This document shows positions 5,668-37,414 of a stretch of 63,764 nt of DNA, in pieces; position 1 is the first letter of the stretch, and every line of letters starts with the position of its first letter. The notes under the pieces were generated by a model. The model was given only the letters and a program-made list of their open reading frames with translations, was not told the origin of the DNA and ran no database searches. This DNA is from Archangium sp. (GTDB lineage Bacteria > Myxococcota > Myxococcia > Myxococcales > Myxococcaceae). Where the stretch lies: positions 1 to 63,764 of the forward strand of contig JAUXRX010000045.1 of NCBI GenBank assembly GCA_030681645.1, written 5' to 3'. The position numbers were made by a program, and so were the translations under genes.

Positions 5668-5739
5668 TCTCCCTCTCCCTGCGCAGCGGGGAACGGCGAA
5701 CTCGCGCCTCGAGGGGAAGGAGGGCCGGGGTGAGGGGCC
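5668..5739. repeat. REP-like element: CCCTCTCCC..GGGGAA + 20-bp motif + GGGGTGAGGGG
   Basis: The sequence is tccctctccctgcgcagcggggaacggcgaactcgcgcctcgaggggaagg...ggggtgagggg. Confidence 0.7.
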
Positions 5740-6653
5740 CAGTGACGAAACACACCATCCGGTTGCGAGAGTTCGCCGCGAGCAAGCTGAAGCGCCTCGC
5801 GCAACCCGGTGACGCAGTCGCGATCACGGGCTCGGTCGCCAGAGGTAACGCGAGAGCCGACTCCGACCTCGACCTGTGGATCCTCGGGACCCGCAGCGGC
5901 CGCTCCGTGCGCCGCCTCGAGGGAGTGAACGTCACGCTGCTCTGCCAGACGCCGGCGGAGGCAGAGCACTTCGACAACCTCTGCCTCTACGAGGTCGACG
6001 ATCTCGTCGTCCTCGAAGACGGCTCAGGCGCGTTCGCGCACCTCCAGGAGAACTGGCGCAAGCACCGCCGCCGCATCCGCGCTGAGATCATCCGCTCGAC
6101 CGAGGCGCAGGTGCGTTGGGAACTCTCGCGCGCGGAGCAGGGGAGCGCGTTGCACCGGTCGTCCTTCCTCCGCTTCGCGGGTTGGCGGCTGATGTGCCTG
6201 CGCGTGTACATCGATCGCGGCTGGCGGGTGCCGCGGCTGCACACGCTGCGTGAGCAGGTGCCGGCGGCGTTGAGGAAGCACCTCGACGCGACGCTCGGGC
6301 TGCCTTCTGCCCCGGTGTGCCGTCGCGCGGTGAAGTGGATGCCTGCTGCGCTGAAGGAAGTGCAGGCGATCGCCGGGCGCGATGGCTACGCGCTGCCTGA
6401 GTCGATCGCCGAGAAGGCGAAGCTCGCTCCTGAGGAGGCCGCGCTCGTCGCTCGCAAGGAGCTGCTGCTCGAGTTGTTGCCTCGCGTGTTCCGTGAGTAC
6501 GGCATCACGGACGTTCGCGGCGTGGAGTTGCTCGGCGGCGTGGCGCCGAAGTTGCGGGCGGCGTTTCGCGCGCTCGAGCCTCGCGCGGATGCGGCGAGCT
6601 TGAAGCGCCTGCGGGGCCACGTGCTCGCCCTCGAGCGATCGCTGCGGCCCTGA
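5730..6653 (+). CDS. nucleotidyltransferase-domain protein (Pol-beta superfamily)
   Basis: The motif GSVARGNARADSDLDLWIL is a GS-x9-DxD nucleotidyltransferase signature near the N-terminus. The track ORF from 5178 is an upstream extension over the REP-like element. The start is a GTG at 5730 or 5742. Confidence 0.6.
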   Translation: MRGPVTKHTIRLREFAASKLKRLAQPGDAVAITGSVARGNARADSDLDLWILGTRSGRSVRRLEGVNVTLLCQTPAEAEHFDNLCLYEVDDLVVLEDGSGAFAHLQENWRKHRRRIRAEIIRSTEAQVRWELSRAEQGSALHRSSFLRFAGWRLMCLRVYIDRGWRVPRLHTLREQVPAALRKHLDATLGLPSAPVCRRAVKWMPAALKEVQAIAGRDGYALPESIAEKAKLAPEEAALVARKELLLELLPRVFREYGITDVRGVELLGGVAPKLRAAFRALEPRADAASLKRLRGHVLALERSLRP

Positions 6654-6703
6654 GGGTTGCGCGGCCCTCTCCCCGACCCGCTCCTGCTCCGGGAGAGGGA
6701 GTA
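6653..6703. repeat. REP-like inverted repeat CCCTCTCCCCGA..GGGAGAGGG
   Basis: Seen directly immediately downstream of the nucleotidyltransferase stop. Confidence 0.7.
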
Positions 6704-6713
6704 GAGTCCTTCG

Positions 6714-35934: not shown

Positions 35935-37355
35935 TGTCGCTCCTCCACGCGCGCTTCCTCGAGCCGGAGTCCCTGCGCGAGCAGCTGCGCGCGGTGCCGC
36001 ACAGGGTGCTCGAGGCGACCTTCGACACCGGCACGCTCGGTGACGAGGCGGCGGCGGCGCTGGCCGCCACCATCTTCCGCGCCGGTGAGCCGGGCGGGGT
36101 GCTCGACCTCGAGGGCGCCAGCAACTGGGAACAGCGCTTCCACCTCATCGCCTCGCTCGCGCTGACCGACGACGCGCTGGCCACGCAGCTGCTCGAGGGC
36201 GGCTGGCTCGATCGCCGCGGGGTGGGCGCGTTCGCGTTCGGCTCGCTCCCCCTGCGGGTGGTGGCCCGGCAGGTGAACAAGACCTCGCTGCGCCAGGCGC
36301 GTGAGGCGGTGCAGTTCGGGTGGGAATCAGAGCTGCTCAACGTGCTCGAGAGCAGCGCGATGCGGGCCGAGCGGGCGCCCGAGGAGCACGTGGTGCTGCT
36401 GCGCCGCGGAGATCTGTCCAGCCCCCAGCCTTCGCGCACCGAGGCGCTGCAGATCTCCACCCTGCTCAAGGAAGTGCGCGCGCACGGCGCGACCGATCTC
36501 ACCCTCACCGTGGGGCTGCCTCCGACGCTGCACGGCGCGTTCGGCAGCAAGGCGCTGGGTGAAGCGCTGCTCACGCCAGATGAAGTGGCTGACCTGGTGA
36601 GCCCGGTGTTGCCCTCGTCGCTGCTCGCCGCGCGCGGGCCGGTGGTCCACTCCGTGGCGTCGACCGAGCTGGGGCGCTTTCGTGTCACCGTCACCACCGA
36701 GCGCACCTTCCGCGCCGCGACCTTCCGCGCGCTGCCGTCGGCGATCCCCACGCTCGATGAGCTCGGGCTCTCTCCGTTGGTGCAGGGCCCGCTGCTGCGC
36801 CTCGAGCGCGGGCTGCTGCTGCTGAGCGGCGAGCCGGGCAACGGGCGGAGCACCCTCTACTCGGCGCTGCTGCAGCGCTTCGTGGCTGACGGGCGCCACG
36901 TCGCTTCGCTCGAGGAACCGCTGGGCCTCCCGCTCCGTCCCGGACCGGGCGCGGCCCGGCAGTCGATCCTCGGCATGGACGCCGACCTGTCCGACTTCGC
37001 GCGCGCGACGCGGCTGCAGCCGCTCGACGTGGTGGGCTTCGACCTGGTCGACGACGCGCAGGCCCTCGATCTCGCGCTCGACGCCGCGATGGACGGCCGC
37101 CTCGCCGTCTGCGTCTTCCGCGCGCCCAACGTCACCGCCGCGATTCACCGCGCGGGCGTGCTCGACGGCAAGCACCACCGCCGCCGCCTTTCCGAAGGGC
37201 TGGCCGCTTTCATCTACCAGCGGCTCTTCCCGCTCGACGGCAAGCACGTGCTCGAGGTCGACTTCCACCTCCCCTCGATGGCCCTGCGCCGCCACGTGCG
37301 CGCGCACGAGACCCCGCCGCCGCCGATCGTGTTCGAGACCGACTCAGTCGGCTGA
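35934..37355 (+). CDS. PilT/PilU-like secretion-ATPase paralog with degenerate Walker A (likely catalytically inactive)
   Basis: The PilT N-domain-like region is TDLTLTVGLPP...GRFRVTVT. Walker A reads GEPGNGRST (Lys to Arg), and the Walker B/Asp box lacks the catalytic Glu. The ATG overlaps the gyrB stop (TGATG). Confidence 0.7.
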   Translation: MSLLHARFLEPESLREQLRAVPHRVLEATFDTGTLGDEAAAALAATIFRAGEPGGVLDLEGASNWEQRFHLIASLALTDDALATQLLEGGWLDRRGVGAFAFGSLPLRVVARQVNKTSLRQAREAVQFGWESELLNVLESSAMRAERAPEEHVVLLRRGDLSSPQPSRTEALQISTLLKEVRAHGATDLTLTVGLPPTLHGAFGSKALGEALLTPDEVADLVSPVLPSSLLAARGPVVHSVASTELGRFRVTVTTERTFRAATFRALPSAIPTLDELGLSPLVQGPLLRLERGLLLLSGEPGNGRSTLYSALLQRFVADGRHVASLEEPLGLPLRPGPGAARQSILGMDADLSDFARATRLQPLDVVGFDLVDDAQALDLALDAAMDGRLAVCVFRAPNVTAAIHRAGVLDGKHHRRRLSEGLAAFIYQRLFPLDGKHVLEVDFHLPSMALRRHVRAHETPPPPIVFETDSVG

Positions 37356-37361
37356 ACGAGT

Positions 37362-37414
37362 GTCTCCCTCTCTCCGAGGGGAAGGGCGAACTCGCGCCTC
37401 GAGGGAGAGAGGAG
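37362..37414. repeat. REP-like element with embedded 20-bp motif between convergent PilT-like and recF
   Basis: The sequence is tctccctctctccgaggggaagggcgaactcgcgcctcgagggagagagg. Confidence 0.7.

Follow-up and report, generated by a model that had tools for sequence, protein, structure and literature searches.

A probable 27-bp insertion element in genes and REP-like hairpins of an Archangium-like lineage

How sequences too small to encode anything or to carry transposon ends spread through a genome has been an open question since the small dispersed repeats (SDRs) of cyanobacteria. SDR1-8 of the Nostocaceae, treated by Elhai in 2008, are reportedly 21-27 nt long and present in many dispersed copies, with insertion deduced from filled and empty sites. 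They are said to be often nested in other repeats or mini-transposons, to be associated with heptamer units, to encode no enzyme and to belong to one coherent lineage; SDR4-6 reportedly share a predicted secondary structure with compensatory changes. The RIP/BIME-1 elements (BIME, bacterial interspersed mosaic element) of E. coli have the order REP (repetitive extragenic palindrome), linker with an integration host factor (IHF) site, REP, and so present a conserved non-palindromic motif at a fixed place. The BIME linker is not known to occur free-standing in genes or as an iterating unit of fixed length. A further kind of repeat, the Rickettsia palindromic element (RPE), is described together with other intragenic MITEs (miniature transposable elements with inverted repeats) as lying in frame in unrelated protein genes and adding a tolerated peptide (PMC10969869). 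Cyanobacterial SDRs are also cited in PMC3116915, which describes repeats that inserted into, or beside, repeats already in place, and PMC5861425 states that SDR-like repeats were not found outside the Nostocaceae among the HIP1-enriched cyanobacterial genomes examined there. Here we describe a mini-element, which we call S, built around the 20-nt core GCGAACTCGCGCCTCGAGGG in a complete 63,764-bp contig (hereafter the window; locus tags Q8L48_) from an NCBI metagenome-assembled genome (MAG) of Archangium sp. By analogy, the closest known systems are the cyanobacterial SDRs and also the in-frame RPEs.

We consider it probable that S is an ultra-small, non-autonomous and recently active insertion element of 27 bp. 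The core occurs in the window in five exact copies, at 5696-5715(+), 16388-16407(-), 17129-17148(+), 27205-27224(-) and 37386-37405(+), and a search of the window with up to three mismatches gave zero additional copies. This fivefold occurrence had been noticed in a first-pass annotation of the same DNA, and all five copies prove to be exact; the starts given there were right for two copies and shifted by 1-2 nt for the other three. The annotation also held that the frequency of the 20-mer is far beyond chance, in agreement with the 0.09 copies expected from dinucleotide-preserving shuffles, of which 0/100 reach five. An exact scan of 185,579 species genomes (one each, 596 Gb) returned two single matches, both chance matches within unrelated coding sequence. 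The core is thus neither a product of codon usage, an artefact that the annotation itself had raised, nor a widespread repeat. Alignment of the 100-nt flanks of the five copies shows unrelated sequences, with an abrupt end of identity and a weak GAAnG just 5' of the 20-mer. The full units, as defined by the comparisons that follow, are these:

5693-5719, plus strand: S unit, ACG + core + GAAG, within a family-A REP-like hairpin between GGGGA and GAGGG; register unique.
16387-16413, minus strand: S unit, CGAAAG + core + A, in frame at the N-terminus of the R2K ATP-grasp gene; adds ERRTRASRD.
17129-17155, plus strand: S unit, core + CAAAACG, in frame in the MVP-like gene (about 16594-18759); adds ELAPRGQNG.
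27201-27227 (alternative register 27203-27229), minus strand: S unit, AGT + core + GAAA, in frame and antisense in ORF (open reading frame) 26441-27532; adds SPRGASSHF.
37383-37409, plus strand: S unit, about AGG + core + AGAG, within the degenerate family-B REP-like hairpin 37362-37422.

Each event adds exactly 27 bp, consisting of the 20-nt core and seven semi-variable, purine-rich nucleotides (loose consensus GRRANCG). The seven extra nucleotides are split around the core as 6+1 in the ATP-grasp gene, 3+4 in the family-A REP, 3+4 or 5+2 in ORF 26441-27532 and about 0+7 in the MVP gene.

Comparison with the nearest orthologs reveals that the three coding copies are clean inserts of 27 bp, or nine codons, with neither duplication nor loss of target sequence. 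Their genic placement comes from codon-position GC analysis and ortholog comparison; frame assignment by the longest ORF was dropped for the codon-position GC classifier because such calls are unreliable at 70% GC. The MVP protein of the window reads DDKG-ELAPRGQNG-GYV where about 55 aligned orthologs, none with the insert, read DDKG-[G/S]YV. The 27 bp are missing from the MVP DNA of the relatives L003, L004, L136, L137 and L134, the last being the closest relative (93.7% nt identity over 2,019 nt); its alignment with the window has only two indels, the S insert and an insert of a second mini-repeat, family C, described below. In MVP, the register of the unit is uncertain by -2 to +1 nt. The conserved start MLxLxEGPL of the R2K ATP-grasp gene (15555-16448, minus strand) corresponds to the ATG at 16448, and the ortholog P0149 (93% aa identity) is exactly 9 aa shorter at the insertion point. 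Here the DNA of L134 and L135 (94% nt identity) gives the empty site as GGGAGC^TGATCG; only one register is possible, and the junctions show neither duplication nor loss nor microhomology. For ORF 26441-27532, the nine residues SPRGASSHF are absent in 26 of 27 homologs, and the empty site is seen in the syntenic contig L109 (Hainich H41 well) as GTAGAGATCGA^GGGGCTT. In contig L108 (JGI sample) this site is also occupied by S, the core being identical and the linker different. L108 (912-1964) and L109 (3805-4830) are 92% identical to each other and each is 87-88% identical to window 26441-27532. The site holds S in the window and in L108 but not in L109, yet the closer pair is L108 and L109; it must therefore have seen parallel insertion, precise loss or recombination. 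Ortholog length varies at all three genic S sites of the window.

Among the coding copies, at least four of the six reading frames are used (GELAPRG, ANSRLEG, RTRASR, PRGASS), and the coding phase is continuous across the insert. The 20-nt core has zero stop codons in all six frames. Because 27 nt equal nine codons and the core is open in every frame, genic S inserts never break the reading frame, and they survive where nine extra residues are tolerated, as a loop insertion. The first-pass annotation had correctly recognized in-frame copies in MVP (GELAPRG) and in ORF 26441-27532 (PRGASS), and the check that it proposed, whether orthologs lack the insert, finds it absent from orthologs at all three coding copies. 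The insert itself is longer than the seven codons (about 21 bp) then proposed, being 27 bp or nine codons by ortholog comparison. The copy at 16388 had been assigned to a leader or promoter shared by the ATP-grasp and MVP genes, and with it two copies appeared to bracket the MVP start; since this copy is an in-frame insert (ERRTRASRD) inside the coding sequence of the ATP-grasp N-terminus, that arrangement has no regulatory meaning. The suggestion of a mobile mini-element tolerated in frame draws support from the empty orthologs at three genes and from the empty REPs at a fourth copy, to which we now turn.

The other two copies lie within REP-like elements, as had been noted and as comparison with further REPs of the window bears out. 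Two families of REP-like hairpins are present, A (CTCCCTCTCCCTGCGMAGCGGGGAGAGGGYCGGGGTGAGGGGC) and B (GTCTCCCTCTCCCCGAGGGGGAGAGGGTCGGGGAGAGGGCAAAC); in both, each element consists of one left arm and two direct-repeat right arms, and both are also found in the relatives L003 and L109. The elements in the window are as follows:

5669-5740, plus strand: family-A REP, filled, host of the S copy at 5696.
10418-10460, minus strand: family-A REP, empty, the reference empty site.
15499-15541, plus strand: family-A REP, empty, colinear with the filled 5669-5740.
46662-46704, plus strand: family-A REP, empty, colinear with the filled 5669-5740.
62243-62286, minus strand: family-B REP, empty, the reference empty site for the host type of the 37386 copy.
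6661-6701, minus strand: REP-like element.
63575-63600, minus strand: REP-like element, partial.

The three empty family-A REPs are exactly 27 nt shorter than the element at 5669-5740 and otherwise colinear with it. The REP that hosts the 37386 copy lies between a convergent T2SSE-like gene and a RecF/SMC-like gene, and the position and orientation of S within it match about 35 family-B composites from the metagenome. The boundaries of this unit are approximate because its REP has lost one right arm and the contigs examined offer no orthologous empty site; the syntenic L109 sequence stops about 800 bp before the counterpart of the site. Orthologs or paralogous REPs thus provide colinear empty sites for four of the five window copies, which fixes the polarity of the change as insertion. 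As single-stranded DNA, the family-A REP at 10418-10460 is predicted to form a 12-bp hairpin (z = -2.2). The predicted hairpin of the family-B REP at 62243-62286 has z = -4.0 and places the insertion point GGGGGA^GAGGG in its apical loop; its stem survives the S insertion in the predicted fold.

One metagenome scan for the exact 20-mer, in which copies are ascertained through the exact core, extended the family to 103 stretches, which correspond to about 90 unique sites; almost all of these stretches derive from a single aquifer well, Hainich H41, represented by two replicate assemblies. About two-thirds of the sites are in REP families A or B, always at GGGGA^GAGGG, and all of the about 60 REP-borne copies have one orientation and one position. 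The distance from one REP anchor to the other has a bimodal distribution, 16 vs 43 nt in family A and 12 vs 39 nt in family B, with a difference of +27 in both. The seven bases outside the core, rich in purines, vary at almost every locus, and the filled REPs cover several loop subtypes; these nearly locus-specific linkers and multiple subtypes argue for many independent insertions, not for one composite that was amplified. Units also stand in tandem, at an exact 27-nt period, in L007 (three units, linker GTGAACG) and in L042 (two units, linker GAAGACG), and the REP-A flanks, when joined (GAAG + ACG), give the L042 linker. The three tandem units of L007 (1298-1371, minus strand) end directly upstream of an ATG (…CTCGAGGG GTG ATG GCT…) that opens a strong coding signal, so this array may be in a 5' untranslated region or promoter or may extend an N-terminus; the adjoining ORFs gave no Pfam match. 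Non-REP copies show a periodic flank consensus, GAWCG at -5 to -1 and GRRANCG at +1 to +7. Variants with one or two mismatches gave five matches at four distinct loci, with changes mostly at core positions 4-5. S is also nested in inverted pairs of family C (L079, L099, L067). No S copy was found in about 60 kb from the relatives L003, L004, L109 and L134-L137, which restricts S to a narrow Archangium-like lineage; within it, three data sets of independent origin contain S: the NCBI MAG, the ENA Hainich assemblies and the JGI contig. Judged by sequence divergence, the insertions in the window post-date about 6% nt divergence.

These features suggest how S might move. An enzyme whose gene lies elsewhere in the genome would mobilize the element in trans. 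That phase varies while length stays constant suggests a 27-nt intermediate, circular or concatemeric, which would be opened at differing positions, and the single-orientation preference for a hairpin loop suggests that S may be joined into transiently single-stranded DNA. The favored target is a single point, GGGGA^GAGGG, within the G-rich arm or the loop of the two families of REP-like hairpins, and units can be iterated head to tail. At the two junctions whose register is unique (REP-A and ATP-grasp), there is no duplication and zero microhomology, and the -1/+1 flanks of S are not complementary. Three further ideas were rejected: template switching with junction microhomology, given its complete lack at these two junctions; target homology to the 3' half of S, as TCGAGG is nearby at 5/21 sites vs a 12% background, which is not significant; and a phage origin, for which viral contigs yielded two isolated, chance-like matches.

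Several observations weigh against an insertion element. Pfam searches of about 45 window ORFs and of 10 ORFs beside the tandem arrays revealed no transposase, REP-associated tyrosine transposase (RAYT)/HUH protein, reverse transcriptase or integrase, and neither RAYT nor Y1/HUH domains were found in the DNA examined (window genes and ORFs beside arrays). The window encodes nothing transposase-like; its genes are those of an ordinary stretch of chromosome (gyrB, EF-G, glycogen synthase, cbb3 oxidase, kinases), and no Rfam family was found in it. The 27-mer does not fold significantly by itself (z = +0.4), in which it differs from most small mobile repeats. The data examined contain no transposition intermediate and no filled/empty polymorphism within a population at a single locus. 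The apparent invariance of the core is partly circular, because the copies were ascertained through the exact core, and a perfect core beside variable linkers also fits selection on the core as a functional site.

Such a functional site, the alternative offered in the first-pass annotation, would be a putative protein-binding site around the CCTCGAGG palindrome, kept invariant by selection, with its spread secondary. The model for it is the RIP/BIME-1 of E. coli, where an IHF site is embedded between REPs. All 111 matches have an exact core, whereas the 7 nt beside it and the REP arms vary; the core is identical at 20/20 positions between the window and L108 despite 12% divergence of the surrounding gene; and it has a fixed position and orientation within REPs. 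However, ascertainment through the exact core inflates this conservation, and 20/20 identity at 12% divergence has a chance probability of p about 0.08. The genic copies, moreover, lie in varied frames and orientations of unrelated genes, and relatives at 93-94% identity lack them; no conserved regulatory position thus exists, and a binding site leaves the fixed 27-nt quantum and the tandem arrays unexplained. We regard it as an unlikely primary explanation, although binding may be a secondary property of the core. The location in REPs would also result if S had entered a REP once and the composite had then been multiplied by a RAYT, the genic copies being rare by-products of illegitimate recombination with these composites. 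About two-thirds of the copies are indeed REP composites with the same position and orientation, and one linker type (GA...AGAGA) is common to about five loci. But two REP families and several loop subtypes are involved, linkers are almost locus-specific, the genic copies are exactly 27 bp and free of REP-arm sequence, and S is also nested in family-C pairs and iterated in tandem arrays, all of which makes spread as a composite quite unlikely.

The 27-bp quantum could in principle be the sum of a 20-bp element and a 7-bp target-site duplication (20 + 7 = 27) from classical transposition. GTGATCG stands on both sides of the core in L093, as does TGATCG in L054, and the upstream positions -5 to -1 and downstream positions +3 to +7 share a GAnCG consensus. 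At the known empty alleles (REP-A, ATP-grasp and ORF 26441), however, the extra 7 nt are not a copy of the target; the duplication was rejected at every site with a known empty allele and is very improbable. As for chance, codon usage or an assembly or adapter artefact, CTCGAG is a favored Leu-Glu codon pair at 70% GC and the window derives from a metagenome-assembled genome. Against these stand the 0.09 copies expected, only two matches in 596 Gb, the three independent data sets with the insert at an orthologous site in the JGI contig, and the contig-internal position of every insert between flanks of genuine orthologous sequence; the probability of an artefact is negligible.

As an insertion element, S resembles the SDRs in its 27-nt unit, with five copies in 64 kb and, across one metagenome population, about 90 unique sites, in recent insertion documented by filled and empty sites (four of the five window copies), and in nesting in other repeats, with about two-thirds of sites in REP families A and B and others in family-C pairs. 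It differs from SDR4-6 in that the 27-mer folds no better than its shuffles, and from SDRs in general by the strict 27-nt quantum, the variable circular phase and the frequent in-frame survival in genes. Because its host is a myxobacterium (Myxococcota), S is at most an SDR analogue and not a member by descent. RPEs likewise lie in frame in unrelated ORFs, as S does in adding nine residues to MVP, ATP-grasp and ORF 26441-27532. S, however, is 27 bp, five times smaller than the palindromic RPE (about 100-150 bp), is not palindromic overall and sits mostly inside other repeats; whereas RPE encodes a conserved peptide in one frame, S is read in at least four frames or orientations.

With the REP/REPIN sequences, which are linked to RAYT (IS200/IS605-like Y1), S shares its short length, high copy number, non-autonomy, lack of target duplication and association with hairpins. 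It has no hairpin or inverted doublet of its own, forms direct tandem arrays instead of inverted pairs, and, unlike the extragenic REP/REPIN, has three of its five window copies and several metagenome copies in coding sequence; REP families A and B are the targets of S and not the element. In contrast to a MITE, the ends of the unit (e.g. ACG...GAAG) are not inverted repeats and no target-site duplication is present (REP-A, ATP-grasp, ORF 26441). Like the linker of E. coli BIME-1, S is a conserved short motif at a fixed place between REP arms. S agrees with SDRs in size, nesting and filled/empty evidence but not in structure or host, and it departs from REP/REPIN and MITE as described; it is therefore best seen as a variant of a known, poorly understood kind.

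Family C, the second mini-repeat (CCCTCGACTCCGCTCGGG + RTGAACGG), is a hairpin whose 12-nt loop is conserved and whose stem flanks co-vary. It is present in the window as follows:

17949-17972, plus strand: family-C copy, a 24-bp in-frame insert in the MVP gene, absent from L003, L004, L136, L137 and L134.
16522-16539, plus strand: family-C copy, common to the window and L134.
37464-37481, plus strand: family-C copy.
Near 18789-18851, minus strand: family C, degenerate.
Near 41889-41945, plus strand: family C, degenerate.

Many further copies occur in the Hainich contigs, often as inverted pairs that hold an S insert. Family C and S are of similar size and lie in frame in the same MVP gene (24 bp vs 27 bp); they align in 19/24 columns (shuffle p about 0.002), and the family-C tail equals an S linker (GTGAACG). 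They differ in that family C is a hairpin found in viral contigs of many samples, whereas S belongs to one Archangium-like lineage. Family C is older than S, since the 16522 copy is common to L134 and copies are also present in L109. Its 18-mer is exact in 22 stretches of viral contigs (IMG/VR, L112-L133) of 35-70% GC, from many samples and with unrelated flanks, an exact conservation that crosses phyla. This suggests that tiny hairpin repeats of this class are very widespread; among these contigs, L122 has inverted pairs and L121 has 21-nt tandem units. No Rfam family lies over family C, and neither its core nor that of S has a match in the searchable literature. Family-C-like repeats have been linked to small GIY-YIG nuclease genes, none of which a regular-expression scan of all DNA examined detected. 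In an AT-rich viral contig, L126, an RT-17 RNA (Rfam RF03020, reverse transcriptase-associated) at 3311-3399(-) is 2.3 kb from a family-C copy, probably by coincidence.

We offer only tentatively the combined proposal that S is an active 27-nt unit that integrates without duplication in variable circular phase and is also a lineage-specific offshoot of the pan-bacterial and phage family-C mini-hairpins (18-nt-loop). If this were true, the intermediate would be single-stranded and either circular or concatemeric, and S would enter hairpin loops by a ruler-like or ligation-type integration; no characterized transposase has been described as moving DNA in this way.

S ranks among the smallest apparently mobile DNA units seen in bacteria, and its family provides a second, independent system besides the SDRs, with unusually clean features. 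The fixed 27-nt quantum, the REP hotspot, the exact empty sites at 94% identity, the lack of duplication and the variable phase sharply constrain possible mechanisms. S also shows a route by which proteins can gain nine-residue loops without passing through a frameshifted state, and the MVP homolog has been altered twice, by two different mini-elements (S and family C). Elements of this kind can mislead gene callers and ortholog alignments.

Some observations concern the surrounding genes. The RecF/SMC_N-like ATPase gene at 37528-38808 adjoins an ORF of 1,686 aa (38646-43706, minus strand), which has coding-like codon-position GC and no Pfam match. The bacterial MVP homolog (16594-18759, plus strand; MVP shoulder and Vault_3 domains) is divergent from the R2K-clade ATP-grasp gene (15555-16448, minus strand), and this pairing is kept in L134 and not in L003 or L004. 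A VIT-domain (vault protein inter-alpha-trypsin) protein of 1,465 aa is encoded at 812-5209 on the minus strand, 11 kb from the MVP/ATP-grasp pair.

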